The notes below the pieces were generated by a model. That model did not search any database. It saw only the letters and a program-made list of their open reading frames with translations, and was not told the DNA's origin. From Limnochordia bacterium (GTDB taxonomy: Bacteria > Bacillota > Limnochordia > DUMW01), in the NCBI GenBank assembly GCA_023230925.1, contig JALNWK010000006.1, positions 3,515-67,514 on the forward strand: a stretch of DNA of 64,000 nt, written 5' to 3'. This document shows, one piece after another, positions 13,870 to 63,695 of the stretch. Position 1 is the stretch's first letter, and the number at the start of each line of letters is the position of its first letter. Made by a program: the position numbers and the translations under genes.

Positions 13870-13886
13870 TGGAAGGATGAAGTGCA

Positions 13887-22464: not shown

Positions 22465-22704
22465 GTGTTAACCCGTGAAATTGCTGATCGGTTGATCGAG
22501 CAATTTGAAAACATGTCAGAGGCGGATAGAGATGCTCTATTTGAGAGGGCCGGAGTACGATTTTTGGCCGATGACATCCAGGATCTCGTAGAGGAATATG
22601 AGCAAGAAGTCTGCTACTACAACCGCCTTTCTTCGTACCGGTTTGATTTTGCTGATGGGTTGAGTGCAAAAGGTATTTTTTTTACTGGTGTTGATGCCGC
22701 ATGA
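22465..22704 (+). CDS. small acidic protein; candidate antitoxin / chaperone-addicted partner
   Basis: GTG start after a GGTGGAGGTGGGG RBS. 79 aa, highly acidic, with an aromatic-rich C-terminus (YRFDFADGLSAKGIFFTGV). Its stop overlaps the start of the SecB-like gene (ATGA). Confidence 0.35.
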   Translation: MLTREIADRLIEQFENMSEADRDALFERAGVRFLADDIQDLVEEYEQEVCYYNRLSSYRFDFADGLSAKGIFFTGVDAA

Positions 22705-34706: not shown

Positions 34707-36098
34707 ATGGGTAAGGGTCCTAGCACTAATGTCTCCCCCGCAAGACAGGTTGCCCTTGCTGTTTTGATGGAGGTTGAAGGAAAAAGAGCCTATGCTACCT
34801 TGGCTCTAAATGAGAAGCTGCCCGGTCTTACCAAGAAAGACCGGGCGCTAGCTACTGAGATCGTATGTGGCACCCTACGGAACAGAAGCCTACTAGATTG
34901 GCACATTAGACAGGTGGCCGATCGTCCTCTAGAGACGATGTCCCCTCCAGTTCGCAATATACTACGCCTAAGCACCTACCAGATCCTGTTTCTGGATTCC
35001 ATAGGTGACTATGCCATTGTGGACGAGGCTGTGCGGCTGACTAAGTCCTCCTCCCGCAAAGCAGCGGGGTTTGTCAATGGGGTGCTGCGTAACCTCCTAC
35101 GTAAACTACCAGGGTTTTCCTTGCCCTGTTTGGCAGACGATCCGGTGGCGTATGTCTCGATCAAGTATTCCCATCCGGCGTGGCTGGTGGAAAGATGGAT
35201 TGCCAACTTCGGAATCCAGCATACCATTGCCTATTGCCAAGCCAATAACGAGACTCCTCCTACTGTGATTAGGACCAATACACTAAAGATCTCCCGGGAA
35301 GAGTTATTTACTTCCTTGGGAAAAGCAGGAATAAACGGTTGGTTTACAGAATATGTACCGGAAAGCATCGTCGTGGAAAAAACCGGGTCGCCCGAGGCTT
35401 TACCGGGTTACCATGAAGGTTGGTTTTTCATTCAGGATGAGAGTTCTATGATTGCGGCCCACTGTATGGATCCGAAACCCACAGATGTGGTCTATGACCT
35501 ATGTAGCGCTCCTGGAGGGAAAGCCACCCATTTGGCTCAGTTGATGGGAAATCATGGGGAGATATTGGCCGTGGACATCCATGAGCATCGGCTGAAGCTA
35601 ATCGAGGAGAATGCTAGGCGACTTGGTATCACTAACATAGAGACCGTCCTCAGTCCCGCAGAGAAGCTACCGGAGGAATTTTTCGGCAAGGCACAGCGGG
35701 TGCTAGTGGATGCTCCTTGTTCGGGGTTGGGGGTTTTACGCCGAAGGGTTGACGCCCGTTGGCATAAGAGCGAAGCGGATATAGTAGATTTACAACAGAT
35801 TCAGCGGAGTATTTTGAGTCGGGCAGCTAGTTTAGTAGCTCCTGGAGGTATCCTAGTATACACAACATGTACCCTGGAACCGGAGGAGACCCTGGATAAT
35901 GTAGCTTGGTTTCTGTCTAGTTTTCCAGATTATTTCCCTGGGGGTACTCTATCCTCTAGGTTTAGTCGTTTTGCGCCCTCCCGTCTGTATCGGGTCTTAT
36001 CCATACAACGAGAGGTACAGCGATGTATCGCCGCCCTAGCGCCCCATTTGGATGGAACAGATGGCTTTTTCATTGCGCAGTTTGAGAAGAAGCAATAA
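34707..36098 (+). CDS. rsmB: 16S rRNA (cytosine967-C5)-methyltransferase RsmB/Sun
   Basis: NusB-like N-terminal domain and a SAM MTase domain (DLCSAPGGKATH, DAPCSG, TCT). 463 aa. Confidence 0.9.
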   Translation: MGKGPSTNVSPARQVALAVLMEVEGKRAYATLALNEKLPGLTKKDRALATEIVCGTLRNRSLLDWHIRQVADRPLETMSPPVRNILRLSTYQILFLDSIGDYAIVDEAVRLTKSSSRKAAGFVNGVLRNLLRKLPGFSLPCLADDPVAYVSIKYSHPAWLVERWIANFGIQHTIAYCQANNETPPTVIRTNTLKISREELFTSLGKAGINGWFTEYVPESIVVEKTGSPEALPGYHEGWFFIQDESSMIAAHCMDPKPTDVVYDLCSAPGGKATHLAQLMGNHGEILAVDIHEHRLKLIEENARRLGITNIETVLSPAEKLPEEFFGKAQRVLVDAPCSGLGVLRRRVDARWHKSEADIVDLQQIQRSILSRAASLVAPGGILVYTTCTLEPEETLDNVAWFLSSFPDYFPGGTLSSRFSRFAPSRLYRVLSIQREVQRCIAALAPHLDGTDGFFIAQFEKKQ

Positions 36099-36114
36099 GA
36101 AGGGGTGGGAGGAT

Positions 36115-36897
36115 GTGTTAAGAGTTCTCATAGTTGATAATAATGCAGACTTATGCCAACAGCTAGAAGAATATCTCGCACAGTCGCCAGACATTGAACC
36201 CTGTGGTGTGGCCTATGATGGGGAGATGGCCCTTGAGTTAATCCAAGAACTCGAACCCGATGTGGTACTTTTGGATCTAACTATGCCTAAACTAGATGGT
36301 ATAGGTGTGATGGAAGGTCTGTCTAATTTAGACTTAGATACGTATCCGGATGTCATTGTGTTGACAGCCTTTGCCCGGGATGAAATGGTGGAGCGGATGA
36401 CCGAACTGGGCGCGAAATATTTCATTGTGAAGCCAATTAACCTGAGTATCCTAGCTGAACGGATCCGGCAATTCGGGGCGTCTGACAACTCGAACCAAAT
36501 GGGGGGAAGGTTGCCAAATAGTACCGCCTCACCCCTAGGTACAATTCGGCGTTCAGAGGCGATGCTTACAGATCTGCTGCACCAGATCGGGCTACCGTCT
36601 CATTTCAAAGGACATGTGTATCTAAGAGAAGCGGTGTTAATGGTTATGGATAACCCTGCCTTACTTGGAGGGCTGACGAAACAGGTTTACCCGGTGATTG
36701 CAGAGCGTCATAGTACTACGCCATCGGGGGTTGAATCTGCGATCCGAAATGCTCTTGTCACGGCATGGAATAGGGGTAACCGTGAGTTTCTGGTGACTCT
36801 GATGGGAATACATATGACCAACAACGGAGAGGCCCAAATGCCCACTAATTCCGTTCTTATAGCAAAGCTTGCGGATCGATTACGCCTAGCTAAGTAG
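36115..36897 (+). CDS. spo0A: sporulation master regulator Spo0A homolog
   Basis: Receiver domain (LIVDNN...LLDLTMPKLDG...LTAF...KP) plus a Spo0A-specific C-terminal DNA-binding domain. HFKGHVYLREAVLMV and ESAIRNALVTAWNRGN match Spo0A IKGYLYLREAI and ERAIRHAIEVAWSRGN. The start is uncertain; GTG at 36115 fits the usual Spo0A N-terminus, and ATG at 36052 or 36061 is also possible. Confidence 0.8.
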   Translation: MLRVLIVDNNADLCQQLEEYLAQSPDIEPCGVAYDGEMALELIQELEPDVVLLDLTMPKLDGIGVMEGLSNLDLDTYPDVIVLTAFARDEMVERMTELGAKYFIVKPINLSILAERIRQFGASDNSNQMGGRLPNSTASPLGTIRRSEAMLTDLLHQIGLPSHFKGHVYLREAVLMVMDNPALLGGLTKQVYPVIAERHSTTPSGVESAIRNALVTAWNRGNREFLVTLMGIHMTNNGEAQMPTNSVLIAKLADRLRLAK

Positions 36898-40489: not shown

Positions 40490-40490
40490 G

Positions 40491-41679: not shown

Positions 41680-41737
41680 GGGAGCCTACTGTCTCTTGTA
41701 TCAAAAGCATAGAAACTAAAGGTGGACGGGACCTAGG

Positions 41738-44334: not shown

Positions 44335-44373
44335 GGAATATTCCTGTTTGTTGTATAATGTTGAAGGTAAGGG

Positions 44374-46389
44374 GTGGATGAATTGCTGGGAAGAGTCCTT
44401 GCTGACCGATACGAAATCGTTCAAGAAGTTGGATCCGGCGGAATGGCCGTGGTATACCTGGGCCAAGATCGCCTGCTCTGTCGACCTGTGGCTATTAAGA
44501 TTCTACGGGACGTCCATGCCAAAGATGAGGATTTCGTCCGTCGTTTTCGCCTCGAGGCCCAAGCGGCAGCCAGTCTTTCCCATCCTAATGTGGTTAATAT
44601 GTACGATGTTGGCGAGGAAAATGGTATTTACTACATCGTGATGGAATACCTGAATGGGACGGATCTTAAGACTCTGATTAGACAGTATGGGCAGTTTTCC
44701 GTTGGCCAGGGACTCTGGGTAGCGGCAGAGATAGCAAAGGCGTTGGAGCATGCTCATTCCCATAAGATCGTGCATAGGGACATTAAACCCCATAACATAA
44801 TTCTGACTAATGATGGTCGGATTAAGGTAACCGATTTTGGTATTGCCCGGGCCGTGAGTAGCTCTACCTTGACCCAAACAGGTTTTGTTCTCGGCTCTGT
44901 TCACTATTCATCCCCCGAGCAGGTCAGTGGTGGTCAGATTAGTGGGGCATCGGATCTGTATTCCTTGGGTGTGGTAATGTACGAAATGTTCACCGGTAGA
45001 TTACCCTTTGGGGGCGAAACCCCGGTGAGTATTGCTCTGAAACATCTGCGAGATCAGCCACCGTCCCTTAGAGAGTTGCGTGGGGATCTACCCGATGGAG
45101 TGGCATTGATTGTTGAGACGGCTATGGCAAAGGAGCCCAAAGATCGATATCCCAGTGCAGCAAGATTGTTACAGGCGATTCAAAAGACCGGGATGATGTC
45201 TTTGGGGTTTGCCTCGGAAGAAGCGCCGGAGCAGACGGCATTAATGGAAACAACGAAGGTCCTCGCCAGTGTAAATGGGGAGGAACTAGAACCGACGGAG
45301 ATGGTACCCGTTCAGCAAAAGAAAAAACGTTCTACAGGAGCTAGGTTTTTGACTGTTGTTGCAGTGCTCTTGGCCATAGGTGGGCTATCATGGGTAGGCT
45401 TGTTGCAGGCCCGAAAGATGATCTTCCCACCGGATTTGCCGGTTCCTGAGGTTTCCGGCCGTTCCCTAGAGGAGGCCAGTGAGATATTATCGGAGATGGG
45501 GTTTAAACCCAGTGTCGATGGACGAGTCTTTAGTCATGATGTGCCCGAAGGATGGGTAGTATCACAGAACCCCGTTGAAGGAAGAATCGTGAAGAAATGG
45601 CGAACAGTTGAACTGATTGTCAGTAAGGGCCCCCAGATGGTAGAGGTGCCAAATATTGTCGGATATTCTTTGCGGGATGCCGCATTGATGTTAGATGAAC
45701 AAGGTCTAAAGCTAGGTGTTCCCGAGGAGGAGATCAATGAACAGGCCGCAATAGATGAAGTCCTATTCCAGGAGCCGTCATCGGGCAGTGTTCCTGTAGG
45801 AAGTAGTATTAATGTAGTTATCGCCGTTCGGCAGAAGTCTACGGTTCTTTTGGTCCCTGATATCCGAGGATCATATCTGGACCAGGCGCAAAAGGACCTT
45901 GCAGAGTACGGGTTGTCCATTGGAAAAAGTTTTCCTGATTTCTCTGACGAAATCCCCCAAGGGATGATCATCGATCAGAACCCCCGACCCCAGGCTTCAG
46001 TACAAAAAGGGACCGCCATCGATGTAGTCTACAGTAACGGACCAAGGAATAGGCAAGAACCTAGGGAAGATGAAACAGGTGTTGGTACTCCACCAGTTCC
46101 ACCTGTAGGTGAGCTTGAACCCGGGGAGGATACAGATGCCCAAACGCCACCGGAAGCACCAAATGATGGGCAAAAGAGGGCGACAATATCCATTAGGGTA
46201 CCCGATGGGCCGCCCCAGGAGGTCTTGATTTTGGTGGTCGATGATATTCGGGTGGGGATTAAGCAAGTGATGCAGGCCATGGTGGATGGGGGCGAGACGA
46301 TTACCCGGGTGGTGGTTGGGTATGGTCCTGAAGTAAGGGTGCAAGTCTATTTGGGTGGTTGGTTAATCGAAGAGGAATACCTAAGGTAA
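44374..46389 (+). CDS. PASTA-domain Ser/Thr protein kinase (PknB/PrkC-like)
   Basis: Hanks kinase motifs (GSGGMAVVY, AIK, HRDIKPHNI, DFGIA). TM segment, three PASTA repeats and a C-terminal Pro-rich linker plus a small beta-domain. Confidence 0.9.
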   Translation: MDELLGRVLADRYEIVQEVGSGGMAVVYLGQDRLLCRPVAIKILRDVHAKDEDFVRRFRLEAQAAASLSHPNVVNMYDVGEENGIYYIVMEYLNGTDLKTLIRQYGQFSVGQGLWVAAEIAKALEHAHSHKIVHRDIKPHNIILTNDGRIKVTDFGIARAVSSSTLTQTGFVLGSVHYSSPEQVSGGQISGASDLYSLGVVMYEMFTGRLPFGGETPVSIALKHLRDQPPSLRELRGDLPDGVALIVETAMAKEPKDRYPSAARLLQAIQKTGMMSLGFASEEAPEQTALMETTKVLASVNGEELEPTEMVPVQQKKKRSTGARFLTVVAVLLAIGGLSWVGLLQARKMIFPPDLPVPEVSGRSLEEASEILSEMGFKPSVDGRVFSHDVPEGWVVSQNPVEGRIVKKWRTVELIVSKGPQMVEVPNIVGYSLRDAALMLDEQGLKLGVPEEEINEQAAIDEVLFQEPSSGSVPVGSSINVVIAVRQKSTVLLVPDIRGSYLDQAQKDLAEYGLSIGKSFPDFSDEIPQGMIIDQNPRPQASVQKGTAIDVVYSNGPRNRQEPREDETGVGTPPVPPVGELEPGEDTDAQTPPEAPNDGQKRATISIRVPDGPPQEVLILVVDDIRVGIKQVMQAMVDGGETITRVVVGYGPEVRVQVYLGGWLIEEEYLR

Positions 46390-46426
46390 CTAGCGTTGGT
46401 ATACCTGTGTGATGGGGAGGCACACG

Positions 46427-47308
46427 ATGCAAAAAGGCATTGTGATAAGGGCTATTGGTGGCTACTACTTTGTGCAAACGGAGCAAGGGCAAGTGTATCA
46501 GTGTTTGCTTCGGGGGAAGCTCAAACGGCAACACCAACGGATCCTGGTGGGTGATTGGGTGCATGCGCGGCCTACTTCCTCGTCCGAAGGGGTGATTGAG
46601 GAGGTTTTACCGCGGCGGCTGGAACTGTCTCGTCCACCGGTGGCCAATCTTGATATTTTGGTTGTTGTCAATTCTGTGGTCCATCCAAGTGTGAATTTAG
46701 TTCTTCTAGATCGGATCCTACTAGCTGCACGGCAACAAGGGCTGAGGTGTATTCTCTGCTGGAATAAGGTAGATCTAGAACAGGAAGATCCACAGTTATC
46801 GGGGTATATTCAGGCTTACTTGCAGCAAGGGTATGATTGTGTTAGAACCAGTGCGCTTACCGGAGAAGGAATAGACAGATTGATTGAGCTTCTATCGGGA
46901 TCTATGGCTGTTTTGACTGGTGATTCGGGAGTTGGAAAATCTGCCTTGCTCAATCGAGTACTAGGCCAAACGGTTCAGGAAGAAGGTGACATTAGCCAAC
47001 GGCTGAAGCGGGGTCGTCATACCACTAGGGAGGTTGTATTGTATCCCTTGGGTAATGGCGGGTTTATTGCCGATACACCGGGCTTTACTAGGATGCCGTT
47101 GGTTGGTGTTGAACCAGTTGTTTTAGAAGATTTCTTTTTCCGAGAGTATTTTTCCGGTTGTTACTACTCCGATTGCCGTCATCGAAATGAACCTGAATGC
47201 GCGGTAAAGGAAGCAGTTGCCAAAGGGGATATTCCGTCTTGGCGTTACGATAATTATCTGTTCCTTTTGGATGAGCTTGTTGACAGCCAAGAAGGGCAGT
47301 GGAAATGA
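46427..47308 (+). CDS. rsgA: ribosome small-subunit-dependent GTPase A (RsgA/CpgA/YloQ)
   Basis: OB-fold N-terminus, circularly permuted GTPase (NKVDL...GDSGVGKSAL) and a C-terminal zinc finger (C..C.H..EP.C). Confidence 0.85.
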   Translation: MQKGIVIRAIGGYYFVQTEQGQVYQCLLRGKLKRQHQRILVGDWVHARPTSSSEGVIEEVLPRRLELSRPPVANLDILVVVNSVVHPSVNLVLLDRILLAARQQGLRCILCWNKVDLEQEDPQLSGYIQAYLQQGYDCVRTSALTGEGIDRLIELLSGSMAVLTGDSGVGKSALLNRVLGQTVQEEGDISQRLKRGRHTTREVVLYPLGNGGFIADTPGFTRMPLVGVEPVVLEDFFFREYFSGCYYSDCRHRNEPECAVKEAVAKGDIPSWRYDNYLFLLDELVDSQEGQWK

Positions 47309-47318
47309 GGTAGAAACC

Positions 47319-47978
47319 TTGGTGAAAATAGCGCCTTCAATCTTGGCGGCTGATTTCGCCCATTTGGCGGAGGATGTTGCCAAGATTAGCAATGCAGATA
47401 TGCTCCATGTGGATATTATGGACGGTTCCTTTGTTCCTAATTTGACGATTGGCCCACCGGTGGTATCTGCCTTACGAAAGACTACGGACTTGGCCTTTGA
47501 CTGTCATCTGATGGTCAGTAACTGTGATGTATTGTTAGAGCCCCTCGCTGCAGCGGGAGCTGACTATGTTACTGTCCATGCCGAGGCCTGTGTCCATTTG
47601 CACCGTACGTTGATGTATATTAAGAAACTAGGGATGGGTTGTGGTGTTGCTCTTAACCCCTCAACACCGTTAACGAGTATCGAGTGGGTGTTGGATTTAC
47701 TTGATCTGGTCCTGATTATGACTGTCAACCCCGGTTTTGGCGGACAGAGCTTTATAACCCGTTCAGTGGAGAAGATTGCACGGCTCCAGGAGGAAATAAA
47801 GGTTCGAGGTCTGAAAACCCTGATTGCGGTGGATGGGGGAATCAACTTAGAGACGGCACCGGTAGTACATAGGGCCGGAGCAGACGTTCTGATCGCTGGT
47901 TCTTACGTTTTTTCTAGCCCTGATCCAGCGCTGGCGGTAGAACAATTACGGGCGGTGACGGATAAAGTGGGTAAATAG
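47319..47978 (+). CDS. rpe: ribulose-phosphate 3-epimerase
   Basis: VKIAPSILAADFA N-terminus, HVDIMDG and VNPGFGGQ motifs. TTG at 47319 after a GAGGT RBS. The track ORF is over-extended to 47217. Confidence 0.85.
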   Translation: MVKIAPSILAADFAHLAEDVAKISNADMLHVDIMDGSFVPNLTIGPPVVSALRKTTDLAFDCHLMVSNCDVLLEPLAAAGADYVTVHAEACVHLHRTLMYIKKLGMGCGVALNPSTPLTSIEWVLDLLDLVLIMTVNPGFGGQSFITRSVEKIARLQEEIKVRGLKTLIAVDGGINLETAPVVHRAGADVLIAGSYVFSSPDPALAVEQLRAVTDKVGK

Positions 47979-48028
47979 ATACTGGATTTACCCAGTAGAC
48001 AATACGAATCCAGGAGCATTTACTTCTT

Positions 48029-48054
48029 AACGTCCCGAAAGGGGCGTTTTCTTC
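48029..48054 (+). terminator. rho-independent terminator after rpe
   Basis: ACGTCCC-GAAA-GGGGCGT stem-loop followed by a TTTCTTC tract. Confidence 0.5.
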
Positions 48055-48095
48055 ATGCAATCTGGTACAGCAGAGCTAAACCCCAGATTAAGTAT

Positions 48096-48124
48096 TTGCA
48101 TACAGGGTGTAGAGGGGGTATAAT
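48096..48124 (+). promoter_or_regulatory. strong sigma-A promoter upstream of the Tad/Flp locus
   Basis: TTGCAT (48096-48101), exactly 17 nt, then TATAAT (48119-48124). Sits about 65 nt upstream of the first Flp pilin start. Confidence 0.6.
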
Positions 48125-48188
48125 AGGGTCGGACGTTGGACAGACTCACCTAATATACGGGCAGCCGTCCCAAGGGAGGGGAGGTGAT

Positions 48189-48341
48189 ATGGGGTCTTTT
48201 GGTGACAAGGGTCAGGCGGCAGCCGAATTTGCACTGCTGGCTGCCGCGTTGGCTACGGCATTGCTGCTAGTTAATCAACAGTTTACCCAAGCTCTCAATT
48301 TGTACTTTCAGAAGTTGTTTTATTTGCTTCAGCTTTCTTAG
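48189..48341 (+). CDS. Flp/Fap-family pilin (variant 1)
   Basis: 50 aa. GGGAGGGGAGGTG RBS then ATG. Leader MGSFGDKG, then QAAAEFALLAAALATALLLV, a Flp-like G/xxxxEF(Y) processing motif plus a hydrophobic helix. The track ORF starts inside the promoter and is rejected as over-extended. Confidence 0.55.
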   Translation: MGSFGDKGQAAAEFALLAAALATALLLVNQQFTQALNLYFQKLFYLLQLS

Positions 48342-48422
48342 CCTTGCGTATTTGAGCTGCGGGGTGAAAGGGGTGATGAATCGGTAGATAACCCAGCAGT
48401 ATCAAGGAGGAGGTGTTCATGC

Positions 48423-48596
48423 TTGCAGAAAAACGTAAGGCGGTTGTTCCAAGACGAAACAGGGCAAAGCATGGCCGAATATGGTCTGCTTACCGCTCTG
48501 ATTGCCGTTGTCACCATTGCAGCGGTAAAGGCAATTGGTACAAGCATTAGTACCAAGTTCAATACACTAGCACAAGAAATTTCAGGTACACCATAA
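48423..48596 (+). CDS. flp: Flp-family pilin (canonical)
   Basis: TTG start 8 nt after an AAGGAGGAGGTG RBS. 57 aa, MQKNVRRLFQDETG / QSMAEYGLLTALIAVVTIAAV. Classic Flp prepilin G/xxxAEYGLL motif. Confidence 0.7.
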   Translation: MQKNVRRLFQDETGQSMAEYGLLTALIAVVTIAAVKAIGTSISTKFNTLAQEISGTP

Positions 48597-48710
48597 TATC
48601 TAACTCCCAGTTGGAGTGGGAGGCTTTCCGGCATAAACATGGATTGATTGCGTAGATTTGCAGGGAGAAGGCCAGGGGAATCCCTGGCCCATCCTTTTTG
48701 GAGGGGTTTT

Positions 48711-49193
48711 ATGGTCCCGAAGATCATTAACACTAGCTTGATATTGGGGCTGCTCTATAGCAGTTATACGGACTATCGGACGAACCGAATTTATAATATC
48801 GTTACCATACCCTTAATTGGGTTCGGTTTTGCAGCAAACAGCATTTACTATGGGTTCACTGGTTTGGTTTCTTCTTTGCTAGGATGTTTACTGTCTTCAG
48901 CACCCCTCTTCATTGCTTTTCTGCTAGGTGGTCTCGGTGGCGGTGATGTGAAACTAATGGCGGCCGTTGGTGCGTTAAAGGGCATAGACTTCGGTATTCT
49001 GGCCTTGTTTTTCACCGTGACCGTAGGGGCATTGTGGGCGTTAGTTCTTTTAGCCAAACATGGGGAATTGGGTTCCTTGATCCAGCGGCTTGTAACAGGA
49101 AGGTTAACAGACTGCTCGTCCAAGCTCACCCTTCCCTATGGAATAGCTATTACCTGTGGCTCTTTGCTGGCCCTGGGAGTATCTTGGCTATGA
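48711..49193 (+). CDS. prepilin peptidase CpaA/TadV (A24 family)
   Basis: Multi-TM protein with D...YRTNRIYN and the second catalytic Asp motif GGGDVKLMAAVGALKG. Start at the ATG at 48711, with GGAGGGG upstream. Confidence 0.75.
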   Translation: MVPKIINTSLILGLLYSSYTDYRTNRIYNIVTIPLIGFGFAANSIYYGFTGLVSSLLGCLLSSAPLFIAFLLGGLGGGDVKLMAAVGALKGIDFGILALFFTVTVGALWALVLLAKHGELGSLIQRLVTGRLTDCSSKLTLPYGIAITCGSLLALGVSWL

Positions 49194-49220
49194 AAGAGGC
49201 CAGACAAAGGAGGGGAAAAC

Positions 49221-49604
49221 ATGATAGACCTTAGTTGTGACCGGGGTCAAGTTCTACTGGAGGCGGCGATTGTGTTACCCTTGCTATTGCTAGTCACGAC
49301 AGGGATTATTTACCTGGCCATTGTGTTTAACGACGGGTTAGTTCATCGTTATATTACTTTTGATGCCGTTCGTGAGGCTGCTGTTGCGGGGGGTGTTGAG
49401 TTTTATGCACAGAACTTATACACAGCCCATAGTTTGCTTATGTTTCGGGGCGGTGCCCAACTGGACTTTGCGGTGGAGAACAACCAGGTAGCTGGCCAAG
49501 GGACTCTCTACCGATACTTGCAGTTTCCTGTTTTCCTACGCAAGGTTCCCGCTGCTTTGTTCCGTACCAAGTATCGGTTAACATGTAGTCCCAGAACTAA
49601 CTAA
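49221..49604 (+). CDS. TadE-like pseudopilin
   Basis: N-terminal RGQVLLEAAIVLPLLLLV, the TadE/TadG G-Q...E signature with a hydrophobic helix. Confidence 0.65.
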   Translation: MIDLSCDRGQVLLEAAIVLPLLLLVTTGIIYLAIVFNDGLVHRYITFDAVREAAVAGGVEFYAQNLYTAHSLLMFRGGAQLDFAVENNQVAGQGTLYRYLQFPVFLRKVPAALFRTKYRLTCSPRTN

Positions 49605-49780
49605 GGGGTCATCTACTAACGGGCTATTTCCCATCCTGAGAGCAAGTACCCTGGGCACACAAAGCGAAGGTGCAGGTTCTTTGCCCGGTAGATTAACATC
49701 ATGGATTCCTCTTTTGACGATGGGTATGACCTCTATTCCATCTAAAATATAGTCAGCATTTATGCTATCGCGCTAAGGAG

Positions 49781-50536
49781 GTGATGGGCCTATTGTTTGA
49801 TTCCGCCGGAAGGTGGAATCGTGGCCCAGTTTGTATGAGTAAATTACATCGAAGGGAGAAGCAGGCACTAACCCAAAACCGAAAGTCATCTGTGTTCCCC
49901 CAGTGTCAAAGCGGTCAAGCGGGCATTATGGTTGCTTTGATTCTAGCTGTGGCTGTGCTGTGTGCTGCAGCTGTTTCCCACACCGGGGAGCTGACCTTGG
50001 CCAAAATGCAAGCACAGATTGCAGCGGATGCAGGCGCACAAACCGCGGCGGCAGTTCTAGCCGATGGATTGAATACCGTGGCAATTACCAATGTCATTTT
50101 GGTGGGAGGAACCCTTTTGGTGCCGATCACCGAGGGATTAAGCGGTGCATTAGCACGGGGTGCCCATGTGGCCCAGCAAGTTGCGGTCAACACAACACCC
50201 GCGCTTAGTATTACCCTTGGAGAAACTGCTGCCTTTAATAGCGGAGCCGATTTTGCCGTCCCAACGGTGCTACCGGAGATGCATCTACAACGGGCGGCAT
50301 TGGGATACGAGGATCTGCTATCATACCAGGATAAAAACGTTCGACATGTCGGCTTTGCAGCCATGAAGGAACCGAAAAGTATTGCCAGTGGTTTTGCGGG
50401 TAACTTGGTGGATAAATGGAAGAAGGCATCAATGATTTCCTACGCCAAAGGCGTAGTGATTTGGGATGGCTTCGGTTTGGAGATGATCCGGTCCTTTATA
50501 CCCGCTTACGAAGCAGGCTTGACGACTAATCTTTAG
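49781..50536 (+). CDS. TadG-like / pilus assembly protein
   Basis: SGQAGIMVALILAVAVL N-terminal helix, then an Ala/Thr-rich extracellular domain. AAGGAGG RBS before the ATG at 49784. Confidence 0.5.
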   Translation: MMGLLFDSAGRWNRGPVCMSKLHRREKQALTQNRKSSVFPQCQSGQAGIMVALILAVAVLCAAAVSHTGELTLAKMQAQIAADAGAQTAAAVLADGLNTVAITNVILVGGTLLVPITEGLSGALARGAHVAQQVAVNTTPALSITLGETAAFNSGADFAVPTVLPEMHLQRAALGYEDLLSYQDKNVRHVGFAAMKEPKSIASGFAGNLVDKWKKASMISYAKGVVIWDGFGLEMIRSFIPAYEAGLTTNL

Positions 50537-50552
50537 AAAGTGAGGACTCTGG

Positions 50553-50939
50553 ATGGATAGTGAAAGGGGACAAGCTTTGCTAGAAATGGCTGTGCTCCTA
50601 CCCCTGCTGTTGGGTCTTTTCTTTGCCATCGCCCAAGTTGGGCTATTGTACAACACTAAGCAACTAATGTATATGGCGGCCCACCATGGCGCGTTGGTAG
50701 CAGCCTCAGGTGGTGATGGAGTATTTGAGGCCAGGGACTTGCTGCTAGAAAACGGCATTCATGAAAACCGGATTAGTCGGGTTGAAGAGCAACGGAATGG
50801 GAACCTAGTTACCTTGACTATCCAGTGTTCAGTTCCTCCGCTATTTGGACTTGAACCCTTCGGACAAAGAGAACACATCCTTACCGCACAGGTAACCATG
50901 GGCCAACAACTCATCCCCCGTATTCCGGGGGATGGTTGA
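50553..50939 (+). CDS. TadE/TadF-like pseudopilin
   Basis: ERGQALLEMAVLLPLLLGLFF N-terminal signature. Confidence 0.65.
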   Translation: MDSERGQALLEMAVLLPLLLGLFFAIAQVGLLYNTKQLMYMAAHHGALVAASGGDGVFEARDLLLENGIHENRISRVEEQRNGNLVTLTIQCSVPPLFGLEPFGQREHILTAQVTMGQQLIPRIPGDG

Positions 50940-50994
50940 TGGGACAATCCAGGAAGTCTTCTACCTGTAAATTATGTTTTAGGAGAGTGAGAAC

Positions 50995-51609
50995 TTGCAG
51001 TATTTACGGGTCTTCGCAGTGGTCGGTATGGTCTTGGGCCTCCCATCGACTGTCTGTGCCCAATCATACATATATGCCGATGCCGAGACTACAATCTCCT
51101 GGCTGACCAAAACCATTGAGTCGCCCCAGGAGCTCAGTGATATCCTACATTGGCTTTTTCATCGGTTTAGCTCGGATGATGTGTTGCTATCTCTGTGCCC
51201 CGTTAATGCTTCCTTGGAACTTCAGATATTGGCAAAGACCTCAGCATCATCGGTCTCATTGGAAGTCCCCCTGCCGGCGGATAGTAGGTTGCTTGCCATT
51301 TTACGTTCTGTGGGGCAGGGATACCTAGTTGAGACCATGGCCTTCTATACCCCTTGGTCACCTAGCAAAGTGGCTGAGTTTTACCAGATGGGACTGGTCG
51401 AATCCGGATGGAGTCCGGTGTACAACCTGCGTCACACTGATGGAATGATCCCTAGGAGAGTCTTATCCTTTGTGAAGGGATCAGAGGGGAGGTACATCAT
51501 GATTGATGAGGGTATTGATCCTTTAACTTTCGTACAGCTAGTTTGCTACCGAGTAGTGACCAGTCAGTATGATGCGGTATTCAAAGGAGGGATGAGTCAT
51601 GCACAATAA
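50995..51609 (+). CDS. secreted protein of unknown function within the Tad locus
   Basis: Signal peptide (VFAVVGMVLGLPSTVCAQS). No recognisable family. TTG start with a GGAGAGTGAG RBS. Confidence 0.4.
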   Translation: MQYLRVFAVVGMVLGLPSTVCAQSYIYADAETTISWLTKTIESPQELSDILHWLFHRFSSDDVLLSLCPVNASLELQILAKTSASSVSLEVPLPADSRLLAILRSVGQGYLVETMAFYTPWSPSKVAEFYQMGLVESGWSPVYNLRHTDGMIPRRVLSFVKGSEGRYIMIDEGIDPLTFVQLVCYRVVTSQYDAVFKGGMSHAQ

Positions 51610-52456
51610 GCGTCGTTTCCTGATTGCCTTGGCACTGGCGATCTTGGCGGCATTGTTTGCCGTTCGACACTTGCAGGCAGTTGAAACGCGGAAAATACTA
51701 GGCAACCAATCCGGTCGAGCGATCGTGACCGTAAAACCAGTATCCAAGGGGACTAAGATCACGCCGGATGTGATAGCCTATCTACCCATAGCCGAGGAGT
51801 TGATTCCTGCAAACGCGTTCATTGATGTAGAGACAATCCTGGGACGAACAACAGCAAGGGATCTACCCAAAGGAAGCCTGTTGCTAGAAGAACACTTGAT
51901 TACGGGGCGAACCCTAGCACAACGCTTAGCTGGTTCCTTGTATGGTTTTACTCTATCTGTGGATGAGCGAAATGCCATCGCTGGTTTGCTACGTCCAGGA
52001 GACTATGTGGATGTAATCAGTGTCCTTGCTGGGCGCGCCCTTACTGGAGCAGCAAGTGTCACCGTATTACGCCAGGTTCCGGTCATGGCTGTTAACGGTG
52101 TCCTAGGAGGGGATAGTCTGACATCGGGAACCGGACGAACAACGGTCACCCTTGGCCTTTCTTTGCACGAGGCCCAGACGTTGGCCTTATTCGAAGAGTA
52201 TAGCACATTGAGGTTGATCCTGTGTTCCGAACTAGGGGATGGCGGCACAGGTTCAGTAGAACCAACTGAATTGGAGCAGGTTCTATCCCAACAGGGTATC
52301 AACCTCAGGGATGAATTTTCTACCGACACAACGGACTGGAACAGTCTATTACAGGGAATTAGTTGGCCTGGTACTTCCACCATAGTTGATGGTTCACTAG
52401 GTACCGGTGGAGAGGTCATCCGGGGAACTACTGTGGAAAGACGAGATCTTAACTAG
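51599..52456 (+). CDS. cpaB: Flp pilus assembly protein CpaB/RcpC (SAF domain)
   Basis: N-terminal TM, then a SAF/RcpC domain (RAIVTVKPVSKGTKITPDVI...LPKGSLLL..). AAAGGAGG RBS. Confidence 0.75.
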   Translation: MHNKRRFLIALALAILAALFAVRHLQAVETRKILGNQSGRAIVTVKPVSKGTKITPDVIAYLPIAEELIPANAFIDVETILGRTTARDLPKGSLLLEEHLITGRTLAQRLAGSLYGFTLSVDERNAIAGLLRPGDYVDVISVLAGRALTGAASVTVLRQVPVMAVNGVLGGDSLTSGTGRTTVTLGLSLHEAQTLALFEEYSTLRLILCSELGDGGTGSVEPTELEQVLSQQGINLRDEFSTDTTDWNSLLQGISWPGTSTIVDGSLGTGGEVIRGTTVERRDLN

Positions 52457-52479
52457 AAATGACTGGAAGGAGTAGATAG

Positions 52480-53643
52480 ATGCGCAAACTAATACAGGCA
52501 ATCATCGTTGGTTTACTGGTGGTGGGTTTGGTCAGTCTTTGCAGTGGTGAAGTCATTAGTGTCGCAGAGCATTGCTCCCTTGTGATACCAGGTAGTAGGT
52601 TAGAACGGGTAGCTGTGGGAAATCCCCGGGTGGCTGATGTGCAGCTGATCAGTTCCACCGAGTTTTTGGTTAATGGCAAGAGCCCCGGGAGAACTAACAT
52701 CTTAGTGTGGGACGAGGATGAAGTAAGAGAGTATACCGTGTATGTGACCACAAATGATGAGCAACTCCCGGAGGAATGGTTTGAGGAAGTCGGTCAACAA
52801 CTCCATCGATGGGGAATCGATCTAAGAAAAGTCGGCCCGGTGGCGATACTGGAGGGGGAGACGGCAACCGCAGCACAGCTAGCCGCTGCCGAGCATATTA
52901 CAAGCCGACTTTTTGATGATGTGGCCAGTCTAGTAAGGTTGTCTACAGATGAGACTCCTGTATTTGACGACTACAGCCAGATCCAGTTAATCACTTATAT
53001 TGTTGAGCTAAGCGAAGGGTCCCTGCGAACCCTGGGTATCGATTGGCAAAGGACCATTGCCTCTGATGAGTTTGGTTTGCTTAATCTAGCTAGTGTTGCT
53101 CAATTAAGTGCATTGATCAACAAGATCGAAATGATGGAGCAGACCGGCAAGGCTTCAATACTTGCCAATCCTGTTCTGCTGGTAACCAGCGGGAAACCAG
53201 CGCGTTTTCTGGCCGGGGGGCAAGTGCCTATCCCCGTCGAAAGCGGCGAGAACCTACAGATTCAATGGAAGGAATACGGGGTTTCGGTCCAGGTTACAGC
53301 CAGGATAGAGGAGGATACGATTGTGATCAAGATTGAGCCGGAGGTGAGCTCCCTTGATTGGGCCAATGCGGTAAACACCAAGGGTGGTACCATACCTGCC
53401 TTGCGTACCCGGAGCTTGTATACCGAAGTGCGAATGCTTCCCCATGAAACCCTAGTGTTAGGCGGTCTTTTCATTCAGGAAGAAGCTAAAAGTCACGATA
53501 AGGTACCTTTGCTAGGAAGCTTGCCGTTGCTTGGTGGACTGTTTAGGACATCCTCCATTGAAAAAAGAAACACGGAACTAGTAATCCTGCTCTCAGCATT
53601 TCCAAAAACGAAAGGTCTAGGGAGAGTGAGCAGTCTTGACTAG
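52480..53643 (+). CDS. cpaC: secretin (CpaC/RcpA, type II/III secretion system secretin family)
   Basis: Signal peptide. The C-terminal secretin domain ends in the hallmark VPLLGSLPLLGGLFRTSSIEKRNTELVILLSAFP. N-terminal BON/secretin-N like region. Confidence 0.8.
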   Translation: MRKLIQAIIVGLLVVGLVSLCSGEVISVAEHCSLVIPGSRLERVAVGNPRVADVQLISSTEFLVNGKSPGRTNILVWDEDEVREYTVYVTTNDEQLPEEWFEEVGQQLHRWGIDLRKVGPVAILEGETATAAQLAAAEHITSRLFDDVASLVRLSTDETPVFDDYSQIQLITYIVELSEGSLRTLGIDWQRTIASDEFGLLNLASVAQLSALINKIEMMEQTGKASILANPVLLVTSGKPARFLAGGQVPIPVESGENLQIQWKEYGVSVQVTARIEEDTIVIKIEPEVSSLDWANAVNTKGGTIPALRTRSLYTEVRMLPHETLVLGGLFIQEEAKSHDKVPLLGSLPLLGGLFRTSSIEKRNTELVILLSAFPKTKGLGRVSSLD

Positions 53644-55648
53644 AGATAAACCACTGATTTTCGCTGTGACGGGGGCCAAAGGCGGGGTAGGTTGCACTCA
53701 TCTTGCCACCCAGTTGGCACAATCCTTTGCTTTGGCTGGCAAGAGCACTGTGATCTGTGATCTAAACTGGCGGACGGGAGGGGATGTTCATCTATTTCTT
53801 GGTACCCCGATAGAAACCTCTGTCTACGACTGGCTGCAGACCAAACAGACCGGGAGACGCTCTAGCATCAGTGCCTACTTACAGCTTCATGAAAGTGGGT
53901 TGCAGGTTCTGGCAACACCATCCTTCGGCATGAAAATCGGGTACGGACAGGATGTATGTGAGCTTGCTTCCGCTTTGACTCCCTTAGCTGAAGTGGTCGT
54001 ATTTGATTGTGGTACGGCGCTAGATGAAGTCACGATGTCTGCGATGGATGCTGCGGATGTCGTCTTGTTAGCAACTACCGGTGATGTTGTTGCTTTGGAG
54101 AATCTGCTAAACCGGATTGAACGCTTACGGGAGTTGCAGTACGTGCAGGATCGGTTTCGTCTGGTTTTGAATGAACGATCCCGCCTCGAGATTTCTTTCT
54201 CTGAGATGAAGGCGCTTCTGGGTGGTGAGTTCTATGGGATTATACCTGAGGGACTTTCGGAAGCCTTCATGGCAATCAGGGAAATCGCGGAGCGTCTATG
54301 GAGTGAACACGTCGATGGGGTCCTTTTTCCCCAGATAGAAAAGAAGGAGTCCTTCTTTTCTAGATTGGTTCCGAAATTGAGGATACGGTCGCCCAAAAAG
54401 CAGGAAGAGCCACCGATTGAGGAATCCGTAGATGCGATTGGTCTCAGGAAGATCAAAATCGAGGTACATCAACAACTCATGGACCGAATCGATATCAGGA
54501 AGATTGACCTTGCTCCCGATACAGGAGAAAACTTGCGTAAACAGGTGGAGCAGCACGTTACAGATATCTTATCCGGATACCGCCAGCTAAAAAACAACCG
54601 GCCCCTCCGGTTAACCTTGGTCAAAGAGATCGTCAATGAGGTATTGGGGCTAGGTCATCTTGAAGAGTTCTTACAGGATCCTGAGGTAACAGAGATTATG
54701 GTCAATGGAGCTGAACAGGTTTACGTGGAAAGAAGGGGAAGGATCGAGTTGACTGATCGTACCTTCATTAATGATGCCCAAGTCCTACAGATCCTAGAGC
54801 GGATCCTCGCACCTTTAGGTCGCCGGATTGATGAAAGCTCCCCCATGGTAGATGCCCGGCTGCCCGATGGTTCTCGGGTCAATGCGGTTATTCCGCCCTT
54901 AGCTGTCGATTGTCCAACATTGACGATCCGTAAGTTTGAGGTAGTACCTTTTACGATGAAGGACCTAGTGCTGAAAGGAACCATTGATAGACAAACAGCT
55001 GACATCGTCAGTGAGGCCGTCAGAGCCAAGAGGAACATTATCATCTCAGGGGGCACAGGTTCAGGGAAGACTACGTTGCTCAATGTGCTTTCGGACTTCA
55101 TTGGTAGGGATGAGCGGATTATTACCATCGAGGATGCTGCGGAGTTGCGACTAAAACAGGCCCATGTGATTCGTCTAGAGGCTAGACCCGCTAACATTGA
55201 AGGAAAAGGCGAGGTCGCCATTAGGGATTTGGTACGTAATGCGCTGCGCATGCGACCTGATCGGATTATTGTTGGAGAGGTCCGGGGTGGTGAAGCTTTG
55301 GATATGCTCCAAGCTATGAATACAGGACACAAGGGCTCATTAAGCACCATCCATGCAAACTCGCCAAGGGATGCCATTTCCAGGCTAGAGACCATGGTCC
55401 TTATGGCCGATGTGGACCTTCCCCTTGGGGCCATTCGCAATCAGATCGCCTCAGCGATTGACCTAATCATCCATATGAGCCGCCAAAGTGATGGTTCCCG
55501 GCGGGTAATTAGTATGGCACAGATTAAGGGAATAAGGGAGGGAGAGATCGTCCTAGGTGATCTACTCAGAACCCCGGCAAAGGCTTCTGAGGAGTACGAA
55601 GGCCCTCATTCTCAAGCTGTCTCTGCGGTGGGAGATATCGGAGGCTAG
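53636..55648 (+). CDS. fused CpaE/TadZ-like ParA/MinD ATPase and CpaF/TadA secretion ATPase
   Basis: Residues 1-250 form a deviant Walker A MinD/ParA domain (VTGAKGGVGCTHLA). Residues about 270-670 form a T2SSE/VirB11-like ATPase (Walker A GGTGSGKTT, Asp box, Walker B, His box). A single 670-aa ORF with a Lys/Pro-rich linker. Confidence 0.75.
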   Translation: MTRDKPLIFAVTGAKGGVGCTHLATQLAQSFALAGKSTVICDLNWRTGGDVHLFLGTPIETSVYDWLQTKQTGRRSSISAYLQLHESGLQVLATPSFGMKIGYGQDVCELASALTPLAEVVVFDCGTALDEVTMSAMDAADVVLLATTGDVVALENLLNRIERLRELQYVQDRFRLVLNERSRLEISFSEMKALLGGEFYGIIPEGLSEAFMAIREIAERLWSEHVDGVLFPQIEKKESFFSRLVPKLRIRSPKKQEEPPIEESVDAIGLRKIKIEVHQQLMDRIDIRKIDLAPDTGENLRKQVEQHVTDILSGYRQLKNNRPLRLTLVKEIVNEVLGLGHLEEFLQDPEVTEIMVNGAEQVYVERRGRIELTDRTFINDAQVLQILERILAPLGRRIDESSPMVDARLPDGSRVNAVIPPLAVDCPTLTIRKFEVVPFTMKDLVLKGTIDRQTADIVSEAVRAKRNIIISGGTGSGKTTLLNVLSDFIGRDERIITIEDAAELRLKQAHVIRLEARPANIEGKGEVAIRDLVRNALRMRPDRIIVGEVRGGEALDMLQAMNTGHKGSLSTIHANSPRDAISRLETMVLMADVDLPLGAIRNQIASAIDLIIHMSRQSDGSRRVISMAQIKGIREGEIVLGDLLRTPAKASEEYEGPHSQAVSAVGDIGG

Positions 55649-55704
55649 TCTGAGATTAGTCAAATTCAATGTTTCTTCCTAAACGAGAAAAGGAGGTGGT
55701 GATC

Positions 55705-56487
55705 ATGATTGTCATTGTGGCTGGTCTTGTGTTCGGCGCGGTTTTTCTGGCGACTTCCAGTGGTTGGCCCTATCTTGAACGTATCTGGCGGTGGATACAA
55801 CCCTTAGGTAAAAACCCCCTTTTCCTTGGATTAGGGGTGTTTCTGGTGGTGTATGCACTACGGGGCAGTATTAGTCTAGGTCTGTTGCTTTCATTGAGTA
55901 TTGTTAGCGCAGTAAAGGTAAAATCGATGTACTTGCGAAGACGCCGTTTTCATGCATTGGATAGTCAGTTAGCCGATGGTCTTCTGTTATTGTCAAACGG
56001 CCTCAAAGCAGGTTTTAGTCTACGCCAAGCCCTGGAGATGGTGGGGCGGGAAATGGCAGATCCCTTGGGAGCTGAGATACGGGTGCTGGTCCATGAACTG
56101 GACCTAGGAATTTCGTTGCCCGAGGCCATGCGCCGTTTTTCTATTTCAGCGGAGCATCCAGATGTAGAGCTGGCTGTTACCGCTATTCTTGTACAGCGGG
56201 TGACTGGGGGCAATTTGGCCGTAGCCTTAGAGCGGATCGCCGGTACGATAAATGAACGTAGGCGGTTAGTCGGTAAGGTGCGGGCTATGACAAGCCAAGG
56301 CCGCCTTACAGGGGTGATTATTTCCTTGATGCCTGTAGTCTTGATGCTATTGCTTTTGCTCATCGCTCCGGACTTTGTGGCACCGCTGCTCTTTACTACC
56401 CAAGGGCGCTTACTGCTCACTCTAGGGGCCATGATGCAAGCCATCGGAGCGTTGTTGGTATGGCGGATTTGCTCTGTGGAATTGTAG
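55705..56487 (+). CDS. tadB: Flp pilus assembly membrane protein TadB (T2SS-F family)
   Basis: T2SSF domain membrane protein. ATG at 55705 after an AAAGGAGGTGGTG RBS. Confidence 0.75.
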   Translation: MIVIVAGLVFGAVFLATSSGWPYLERIWRWIQPLGKNPLFLGLGVFLVVYALRGSISLGLLLSLSIVSAVKVKSMYLRRRRFHALDSQLADGLLLLSNGLKAGFSLRQALEMVGREMADPLGAEIRVLVHELDLGISLPEAMRRFSISAEHPDVELAVTAILVQRVTGGNLAVALERIAGTINERRRLVGKVRAMTSQGRLTGVIISLMPVVLMLLLLLIAPDFVAPLLFTTQGRLLLTLGAMMQAIGALLVWRICSVEL

Positions 56488-56576
56488 TGGAACGTCAATG
56501 GAATAGAAAGGGTTCTATTTAGTGAGCGAGTATTCCTATAGAAAGGCGGTGTGGCGACCTTTGGTCGCTTAATTCT

Positions 56577-57434
56577 ATGCAGGTTATCCTGGTTGGTATT
56601 TTAGTCGGTTCTGCTGTATTCTTTGCGGTTGCGGGAATACTACCCTCGGAGCAAAGAACCAGAAGACTTCTCAATTGCAAGCAGCAAGAGACTGTCTATG
56701 GTCATCTGAAGACACCATGGCGTGTTCTACTGGAGATCGTCTGCGGGATGGGGCGGCTCTGTCGGCATATACTTCCTAAAAGCTACCTAGGCAAATGTCA
56801 GGATTTATTAATAATGGCAGGAGAACCCTTGGGGATTGATGTATACTGCGGACTTGGTGTTGTTGTACTATGCTTAGCCATGGGTTTTGGCCTGGCAGCA
56901 TCAAATTGGATGGTTACCTTCTTTGCTATTATTCTAGGGTTAGTCTCCATGCGGATATGGCTTGTGGCCATGGTTCGGCGCAGAAGAAACTGCATATCCC
57001 GGACACTACCCTTTGCTTTGGATCTCTTAACCATCTGTGGAGAGGCGGGACTCGGTTTTGATAGTGCATTGTCCCGCTATGTGGAAAGCAGCGACGAGGG
57101 ACCACTTAGGGAAGAGTTTGTGGGACTCCTCCAAGATATGCGGTCGGGAAAGTCACGGTATCAGGCGTTGAAGGATTTTGCCGAGCGACTAAAAAGTCCT
57201 GAGATAGACTCCTTTTGCCTGACGATGATGCAGGCTGATCAACTAGGGACTAGTATTGGCACTGTGTTGCGGATGCTGGCAGATCAAACTAGAACACGCA
57301 GGAGTCAGCAAATAGAAGGTCTAGCCATGCGGGCGCCTGTTAAGATGCTATTTCCCCTATTATTCTTCGTCTTTCCTGCGGTTTTCATCGTCTTCTTTGG
57401 TCCTATTTTGCTAAATGGTCTTTTCCTTACCTGA
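56577..57434 (+). CDS. tadC: Flp pilus assembly membrane protein TadC (T2SS-F family)
   Basis: Second T2SSF-domain membrane protein, immediately after tadB. Confidence 0.7.
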   Translation: MQVILVGILVGSAVFFAVAGILPSEQRTRRLLNCKQQETVYGHLKTPWRVLLEIVCGMGRLCRHILPKSYLGKCQDLLIMAGEPLGIDVYCGLGVVVLCLAMGFGLAASNWMVTFFAIILGLVSMRIWLVAMVRRRRNCISRTLPFALDLLTICGEAGLGFDSALSRYVESSDEGPLREEFVGLLQDMRSGKSRYQALKDFAERLKSPEIDSFCLTMMQADQLGTSIGTVLRMLADQTRTRRSQQIEGLAMRAPVKMLFPLLFFVFPAVFIVFFGPILLNGLFLT

Positions 57435-57675
57435 TATTCAGAAGGTATTTGTCGATCGACGTGGAAGTAATTACTTAAAATGGATTGGAGATGGATGGAG
57501 TCCACTGTCCTTATGGGCAAGGGGACGATCTCGGTCAGGTGTGTTTCCGGAATCTGTACCATGCCGGATAACTAGGCGGGCCGTTCTACTGGTTCATAGT
57601 CAATCTAGCATTGGGTGATTCGTGCTAGGTGAGTTGTGGCGGCTGCCTAATCGAACGTTTAGTGAAGGTGTTAGG

Positions 57676-58320
57676 ATGGACTATGCTGATTATTCCGTGG
57701 TTTTGACCAACGGGACGGTTTCCGATTTGACGTTTTACCGACCGTTCTTGGAGGAGGCAAATTTTATCATTGCCGCAGATGGGGGAGCTACTATCGCAAC
57801 AAGGTTAGGCGTGCGCCCATCGGTGCTTATTGGTGACTTTGATTCCCTTCCTGAAGAGGACCAAGACGTTCTTTCAGCTCAGGAGGTAAAGGTGATTAGG
57901 TATCCGGTCCATAAAGATAAGACAGATAGTCACTTGGCTGTTGAGTATGCTCTGAAACTATCACCAAGGAACATTATTATACTGGGGCCCTTGAGGGGCC
58001 GGCTTGATCATACTCTAGCTAATGTGGGCCTATTGTTTTTGATTCGCTCGGCTGGGAAAAAGGGTTATCTTGTGGATGAGACTAACTTCTGTCAGCTGAG
58101 TGGAAGTGAATGTTGGATTACAGGAAATATTGGACAGTTGGTATCTCTAATTCCTTTGTCCGAGGAGGTCAAAGGAGTATCTACTATTGGGTTGGGTTAT
58201 CCTTTAACGGGTTCTACGTTAAGGCGATGTGATTCCCTGGGGGTAAGTAACTTTCTTGTCGAGGCACAGGCACGGGTTGCGGTAACTAGTGGTGACTTGC
58301 TCATTGTCCAGGTTCGATAA
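57676..58320 (+). CDS. thiN: thiamine pyrophosphokinase
   Basis: VVLTNGTVSDLTFY...FIIAADGGA...LIGDFDSL TPK catalytic motifs. Same position as B. subtilis thiN (yloS) after rpe. Confidence 0.85.
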   Translation: MDYADYSVVLTNGTVSDLTFYRPFLEEANFIIAADGGATIATRLGVRPSVLIGDFDSLPEEDQDVLSAQEVKVIRYPVHKDKTDSHLAVEYALKLSPRNIIILGPLRGRLDHTLANVGLLFLIRSAGKKGYLVDETNFCQLSGSECWITGNIGQLVSLIPLSEEVKGVSTIGLGYPLTGSTLRRCDSLGVSNFLVEAQARVAVTSGDLLIVQVR

Positions 58321-63214: not shown

Positions 63215-63523
63215 TTACATTTCAGCTGGATTATGTGCGCTGGATATTTTGCTACCCTGTGCGTCTGGCTCGAGGCCAAAGCGAGGCTTCTGTCCGCTTG
63301 CGGCTTGGTTCATCAAGGATTGCTCGGCAGCAGCAATCATCCTACGAACCATATGTCCACCAACGGCACCACACTCTCGAGAAGAGATGTTGCCCCAGTA
63401 CCCCGACTGATACTCAGGGTTAATCCCAAGCTCCGATGCAACCTCGTACTTGAACTGATCAAGAGCCTGCAATGCACCGGTAACTACAGGTTGGTTCCTG
63501 CTGGTTTCCTGACCTAATGCCAT
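63215..63523 (-). CDS. alpha/beta-type small acid-soluble spore protein (SASP), extended C-terminus
   Basis: ATG at 63523 preceded by AAAGGAGGTGA. ALDQFKYEVASELGI and SRECGAVGGHMVRRMIAAAEQ match the two conserved SASP alpha/beta signature blocks. About 102 aa, longer than the typical 60-75 aa. Confidence 0.75.
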   Translation of the reverse strand: MALGQETSRNQPVVTGALQALDQFKYEVASELGINPEYQSGYWGNISSRECGAVGGHMVRRMIAAAEQSLMNQAASGQKPRFGLEPDAQGSKISSAHNPAEM

Positions 63524-63695
63524 TTTGTCACCTCCTTTCGGTCTTAGCATTACCAACGTTCTTCAACGCATACGAGTTAATTGTTACCGAAGTTAGGTTC
63601 CAAGTGGGTCTTTGGTCACAAAGCAGTAGAACGAAAAGTGGCGGACATACTTTGCACAGACCATTATAGGCTTAGATAATACGTCCTAGCAGACT

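Follow-up and report, generated by a model that had tools for sequence, protein, structure and literature searches.

Secretin-bearing type IV filament machines are known from Firmicutes that possess an outer membrane. In the diderm Halanaerobiales and Negativicutes, six such systems have been catalogued, comprising two Tad systems, three type IVa pili and one type II secretion system (Denise et al. 2019, PMC6668835), and Negativicutes and Halanaerobiales all encode PilQ (Antunes et al. 2016, PMC5007114). The adaptation of Tad systems to monoderm hosts involves loss of the secretin (PMC6668835). A third diderm lineage, the class Limnochordia, lies outside the survey of Denise et al. Here we analysed a stretch of 64,000 nucleotides (the window) from a genome labelled Limnochordia bacterium (contig JALNWK010000006.1, positions 3,515 to 67,514). 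The open reading frame (ORF) at 52480-53643 on the plus strand, placed at exactly these coordinates by an earlier sequence-only reading, encodes a protein of 387 amino acids (aa). This protein is very probably the outer-membrane secretin (CpaC/RcpA type) of a chromosomal Tad/Flp pilus in a diderm, spore-forming Limnochordia Firmicute. As in the systems of the other two lineages, a secretin of ordinary architecture is found in a Firmicute-type pilus locus of a host with an outer membrane.

RcpA of Pseudomonas aeruginosa (PDB 8odn, the RcpA-TadD complex) and CpaC of Caulobacter show the same domain order as the window protein, with a pil_N beta-domain followed by N-domains and the secretin core. 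Their loci also contain the same partners, namely Flp, a prepilin peptidase, RcpC/CpaB, TadA/CpaF, TadB/C and TadE-like pseudopilins. The window secretin differs from them in that its core is only ~30-40% identical, no TadD or RcpB/CpaD is encoded nearby, CpaE is fused to CpaF and the host is a spore-forming Firmicute. It is also shorter, as RcpA/CpaC proteins range from 416 to 560 aa. A metagenome-assembled genome (MAG) designated 'GSMM966', from an anaerobic digester/biogas habitat, carries a tad gene set that includes cpaC, for which a role in adhesion or biofilm formation was proposed (PMC9347119). Gene set and habitat type are thus the same as here, whereas GSMM966 was described at the level of annotation without discussion of its envelope. 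Secretin-bearing Tad systems had therefore already been reported, both in diderm Firmicutes and in digester MAGs, before that of the window.

The ORF product is a bona fide secretin of the CpaC/RcpA type, as the sequence-only reading had proposed. In a search against Pfam, the Secretin family (PF00263) matched residues 219-372 with 132.3 bits (E 1.7e-38; cut-off 27.5), and T2SS-T3SS_pil_N (PF13629) matched residues 28-89, N-terminal of the core, with 58 bits (cut-off 23). These scores are far beyond chance. The C-terminal end reads ...VPLLGSLPLLGGLFRT...ELVILLSAFP. The N-terminus, MRKLIQAIIVGLLVVGLVSLCSG/E, has the appearance of a signal peptide, with MRK, a 17-residue hydrophobic stretch and a CSG/E junction (the slash marks the predicted cleavage). 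A model of the protein built with AlphaFold2 (AF2) on 40 homologs had a mean predicted local distance difference test score (pLDDT) of 82.5. It places a helix at residues 2-20, corresponding to this signal, and a first strand at residue 24, which opens a beta-domain (24-90). Two small N-domains of alpha/beta type follow (~98-236), and residues 240-376 form the long beta-hairpins of the core. When the model was compared with the PDB using Foldseek, the top 40 matches were all secretins with a probability of 1.0.

To which machine the secretin belongs was weighed against the shared nature of the secretin core. NCBIfam models for GspD, PilQ, SctC, MshL and HofQ all match the protein, which could indicate that it serves not a Tad pilus but a secretion or DNA-uptake machine (type II secretion, type IVa pilus or Com). 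However, these models cover only the shared C-terminal core and score far under their cut-offs (for GspD, 102 bits versus 351), so the protein does not belong to any of these subtypes. The pil_N domain and the best structural relatives are Tad-specific: among all PDB sequences the top matches were the Tad secretins RcpA (8odn, E 2.4e-38) and 8jvb (E 8.8e-36), while the non-Tad secretins trailed, with PilQ at ~6e-20, GspD at 1e-17 or weaker, and InvG also behind. Moreover, all neighbouring genes are Tad components. Service in another machine is accordingly extremely unlikely.

The secretin gene lies in a complete Flp/Tad operon on the plus strand (48189-57434; Table 1), in which Flp pilins, prepilin peptidase, CpaB/RcpC, CpaF/TadA and TadB/C are all encoded on one strand. 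The CpaB partner predicted from the sequence was recovered with a score well above its cut-off. Two junctions overlap, that of the 204-aa protein gene with cpaB and that of the cpaC stop with the cpaEF start (8 nt), suggesting co-translation. The observations made here concern the domains, the operon make-up, the structural relatives, selection, the taxonomic label and synteny with related MAGs; the mechanism that follows is a proposal drawn from the known Tad pathway. The CpaA peptidase would cleave the two Flp prepilins after the conserved glycine. The CpaF ATPase, fused to its localisation partner CpaE, would then polymerise them together with the TadB/TadC platform, with the TadE-like pseudopilins priming the fibre. 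CpaB would span the periplasm as a bridge, and the fibre would leave by way of a CpaC multimer that forms a channel in the outer membrane. As the Lol pathway is largely missing from diderm Terrabacteria, assembly of the compact secretin probably proceeds with no lipoprotein pilotin.

Sequence divergence indicates that the secretin is maintained. Its closest homolog, from a biogas-fermenter metagenome, is 69% identical. Between the two genes, the nonsynonymous divergence (dN) was 0.25 and the synonymous divergence (dS) was saturated (LWL85 dS ~2.4, NG86 undefined), with 64% of four-fold sites differing. No domain had a dN/dS ratio above ~0.1, and that of the core was 0.07; dS being saturated, the ratio is an upper-bound style estimate. 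Among seven assemblies of the species, the gene showed at most one (synonymous) difference, too few for dN/dS. Judging from the substitution pattern between the homologs, the secretin gene is under purifying selection.

For comparison, 80 loci were collected from GTDB species representatives, all of species other than the window's own, by a scan with a 4-sequence alignment. The best matches among them to the secretin core (43-46% identity) and to the CpaF ATPase domain (65-67% identity) were from Limnochordia/Bacillota MAGs (loci L010, L024, L017 and L019); the Tad secretin of a Negativicutes MAG (L007) was also among the best genome-scan matches. Prepilin 2 was 36-66% identical, by tblastn, to flp genes in L010, L017, L024 and L009, the last from Armatimonadota. 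In the window, the operon separates rpe from the gene for thiamine pyrophosphokinase (thiN), within a Firmicute core-gene block running from prkC through rsgA and rpe to thiN. This prkC-rsgA-rpe-Tad-thiN slot is common to the window (44374-58320) and L024 (3-16269), with 33-67% protein identity, and L017 (6639-15460) retains the tadC-thiN junction. The CpaE-CpaF fusion likewise occurs in L024 (10941-13061, 706 aa) and L017 (11307-13199, 630 aa). In L010 (10905-12191), an ORF joining a receiver domain to CpaE precedes CpaF instead, and no full-length match to the fusion was found in L007 or L009.

These loci bear on whether the operon, secretin included, could be a recent horizontal gain from a classical Gram-negative donor, with the secretin as a passenger that would not have to work in this host. 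Tad loci are often transferred horizontally (PMC6668835), and beyond the species itself the closest secretins in the databases, drawn from many phyla, share only 30-37% identity. Nevertheless, the nearest relatives of both the secretin core and CpaF are Limnochordia/Bacillota MAGs, the slot and the fusion recur in L024 and L017 at protein identities that imply an old residence, dN/dS is low, and the GC content of the operon is indistinguishable from that of the remaining window. Taken together, these results support an old residence in the clade by descent; inheritance of the operon looks vertical, and a recent acquisition is highly improbable.

Placement of the host in the class Limnochordia is supported by submitters' labels and by named relatives. 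The identical secretin occurs in the MAGs GCA_028686625.1 and GCA_028705855.1 and in several metagenomes, where NCBI records it as 'MAG: ... [Limnochordia bacterium]', and the 204-aa protein carries the same label. The named relatives of Spo0A are from Limnochordia/Limnochordales MAGs, unclassified Firmicutes/Bacillota MAGs, Thermaerobacter, Symbiobacteriaceae and Capillibacterium. Spo0A and the alpha/beta-type small acid-soluble spore protein (SASP), both of which the sequence-only reading had recognised, lie in the window, and a gene for YtxC lies just past it. Three Firmicute lineages have a lipopolysaccharide-containing outer membrane, and Limnochordia is among them. According to Taib et al., as cited in PMC11456536, the cluster of outer-membrane genes is present in all 46 of the UBA Limnochordia genomes they analysed, and an outer membrane has been seen by transmission electron microscopy in Limnochorda, Geochorda and Carboxydochorda (PMC11456536). 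The title of Watanabe et al. (2016), in the reference list of the same paper, describes L. pilosa as 'a Gram-negative spore-former'. That this MAG is diderm we infer from its labelled class, from what is published on the class as a whole and from the secretin being maintained.

Several points weigh against this assignment. The class placement comes from labels and named neighbours rather than from phylogeny, and among those neighbours Thermaerobacter and Symbiobacterium are deep-branching Bacillota that are monoderm. No gene for BamA, TamB, Lpt, Lpx or OmpM was found when nearly all ORFs of at least 150 aa in the window were annotated and the scan was extended to both contig ends (80 kb), a result that is uninformative because the contig is a small part of the genome. 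The signal peptide of the secretin was judged by eye alone. Global template modelling (TM) scores of the monomer model against solved protomers were only ~0.3, a low value that is to be expected for a lone monomer set against protomers of an oligomeric barrel. Finally, neither the operon nor the rest of the 80-kb contig encodes a TadD-like lipoprotein, RcpB or CpaD.

The first of these points leads to the alternative that the host is monoderm, like Thermaerobacter or Symbiobacterium, and uses the secretin in an S-layer, in a thick wall or across the two membranes of the forespore during engulfment. In addition to the relatives of Spo0A (Thermaerobacter and Symbiobacteriaceae) and the contig without outer-membrane genes, a Gram-negative stain without genes for an outer membrane is known from several deep-branching lineages of Bacillota. 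Against this, two independent MAGs with the identical protein are labelled Limnochordia, a class in which every UBA genome analysed carries the outer-membrane cluster and three cultured genera show the membrane itself. Furthermore, Tad systems that adapt to monoderms lose the secretin (PMC6668835), whereas here it is under strong purifying selection and is conserved in related MAG loci. The gene also lies within a Tad operon and not in a sporulation operon. A monoderm host is therefore very unlikely. The sequence-only reading had offered two host alternatives; that of a diderm, Limnochordia-like spore-former agrees with the labels and the class literature, while unconventional use by a monoderm found no support. 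A related scenario, in which this digester lineage of Limnochordia (~50% GC, compared with roughly 69-70% in cultured Limnochordales) has lost its outer membrane, as Thermaerobacter and Symbiobacterium have, and a selected secretin works in another layer or across the double membrane of the engulfed forespore, has a similarly slight chance of being correct. A monoderm host would make this a first-of-kind use of a secretin, and the evidence points the opposite way.

Because an outer membrane is already established for Limnochordia, a class of spore-forming Firmicutes, a secretin in the diderm host favoured here is to be expected and poses no paradox, and most of the surprise that attached to its co-occurrence with Spo0A and a SASP is lost. 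The locus adds a Limnochordia case to the secretin-bearing filament machines of Firmicutes with an outer membrane, which matters little alone, and provides one more gene-level sign of the diderm state in uncultured digester Limnochordia. It may be of modest value in considering Tad pili in the adhesion and biofilms of Limnochordia, which are abundant in biogas reactors, and in considering how Terrabacteria without Lol and outer-membrane lipoproteins target and assemble their secretins, since no pilotin is encoded here.

The sequence-only reading had observed that TadD is missing, which held for the operon and the whole contig, and had suggested that the 204-aa secreted protein might substitute for it. 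TadD and RcpB/CpaD are accessory outer-membrane lipoproteins that are typical of proteobacterial loci and not universal. Terrabacteria have practically no Lol pathway, and their Bam and Lpt machines are without outer-membrane lipoprotein subunits (bioRxiv 10.1101/2021.05.31.446380); in Negativicutes, neither LolA nor LolB is present. A pilotin of the lipoprotein kind is thus not to be expected, and the near-absence of Lol already accounts for the lack of one. The 204-aa protein carries a signal peptide, had no match in Pfam or NCBIfam, retrieved only itself in a database search and gave an unusable single-sequence AF2 model (pLDDT 34). As an orphan with neither a family match nor a usable model, it was rejected as a substitute pilotin and kept as a lead. 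That a Lol-less diderm host employs this fast-evolving protein as a new, non-lipoprotein pilotin that aids assembly of the compact secretin is improbable.

Secreted proteins of 260-271 aa fill the same slot between the second tadE-like gene and cpaB in L017 (8375-9157) and L024 (6186-7001). The 204-aa protein has a weak BLASTP match to that of L017 (E 5e-5 over 63 aa), with an '(E/R)FY..L...GW' region in common, and no significant BLASTP match to that of L024. Two further candidates for the pilotin role were set aside. A self-piloting 'liposecretin' is unsupported, as Cys21 of the secretin, in the context V-S-L-C, lies outside any canonical lipobox and has no counterpart in homologs P0003 and P0004. 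The tetratricopeptide repeat (TPR) protein at 23391-24155 was rejected as TadD: it has no cysteine and so no lipobox, generic TPR models were under their cut-offs, and the gene lies 25 kb from the operon. This exported or anchored protein is preceded by a SecB-like protein (22701-23180; Pfam SecB 28.3 bits, cut-off 26), for which NCBIfam SecB models score far under their cut-offs. SecB occurs mainly in diderm bacteria.

Length varies widely among the Tad secretins of the related loci. Those of L024 (7931-10912), L010 (8129-10972) and L017 (9872-11320) have 993, 947 and 482 aa, with BON or BON-like repeats separating pil_N from the core; at this place the window secretin has only small alpha/beta domain(s). 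The width of the periplasm is one possible cause of this range. The record of L017 (DYFA01000016.1) is titled 'Aneurinibacillus sp.', a monoderm genus of the Bacillus class, yet the locus has a GC content of 66.5% and its Tad operon, which includes a secretin, is Limnochordia-like. This label is probably wrong; were it right, a secretin would be present in a monoderm.

Table 1. Components of the Tad/Flp operon and sporulation genes located in the window (positions are those of the window; a slash within a motif marks the predicted cleavage)
Feature	Position	Strand	Evidence and remarks
Spo0A	36052..36897	+	Spo0A_C 99.2 bits, Response_reg 80.7 bits; sporulation master regulator
Flp-type prepilin 1 (50 aa)	48189..48341	+	motif G/QAAAEF; Pfam Flp_Fap 25 bits, under cut-off 32.2; sequence read
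Flp-type prepilin 2 (57 aa)	48423..48596	+	motif G/QSMAEYGLL; Flp_Fap match; translation
CpaA/TadV prepilin peptidase (Peptidase_A24)	48648..49193	+	PF01478 63.7 bits; start placed at 48711 by gene callers
TadE-like pseudopilin 1	49221..49604	+	Pfam TadE PF07811 25.1 bits, cut-off 22.9
Membrane-anchored protein, putatively TadG-like	49781..50536	+	position and N-terminal similarity to L017/L024 equivalents
TadE-like pseudopilin 2	50553..50939	+	Pfam TadE 36 bits
Orphan secreted protein (204 aa)	50995..51609	+	11-nt overlap with start of cpaB
CpaB/RcpC periplasmic coupling protein (SAF + RcpC)	51599..52456	+	TIGR03177 113 bits, cut-off 71; Pfam RcpC 54 bits, SAF 32 bits
CpaC/RcpA-type secretin (387 aa)	52480..53643	+	signal peptide, pil_N 28-89, two N-domains ~98-236, core ~219-376
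Fused CpaE-CpaF/TadA (670 aa)	53636..55648	+	ParA/MinD-like CpaE at residues ~8-210, CpaF/TadA ATPase at ~325-640; Pfam T2SSE 222.6 bits, AAA_31 and CbiA; TIGR03819 (TadA family) 341 bits
TadB inner-membrane platform protein	55669..56487	+	Pfam T2SSF 66 bits
TadC inner-membrane platform protein	56577..57434	+	Pfam T2SSF 75.8 bits
Alpha/beta-type SASP	63215..63556	-	Pfam SASP 93 bits; spore DNA-binding protein

The putatively TadG-like product had no match in Pfam or NCBIfam. By tblastn it showed 37.5% identity over 80 aa in L017, and in L024 an ORF (5043-5687) occupies the equivalent position.

Beyond the operon, a cluster at 39731-46389 encodes an FhaA-like protein (FhaA_N and FHA), a second FHA protein, a PP2C phosphatase, FtsW/RodA, a transpeptidase penicillin-binding protein and a PASTA Ser/Thr kinase. 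This cluster, which we take to resemble the actinobacterial fhaA-fhaB-pstP-rodA-pbpA-pknB operon, is joined here to the Firmicute rsgA-rpe block. A polytopic membrane protein of 506 aa (36890-38410, minus strand) without a match in Pfam or NCBIfam is encoded convergently with spo0A and abuts it. The window is strongly biased towards the plus strand, and among its few minus-strand genes is one for a 709-aa protein (19259-21388) that combines an extracellular solute-binding SBP_bac_1 domain with a C-terminal DUF1349. Just past the 3′ end of the window, non-homologous end joining genes for Ku and LigD (primase-polymerase and ATP-dependent ligase; 12498-15159 in locus L090) adjoin the SASP gene, and the gene for YtxC (PF08812), a member of a sporulation-associated family, lies near them.

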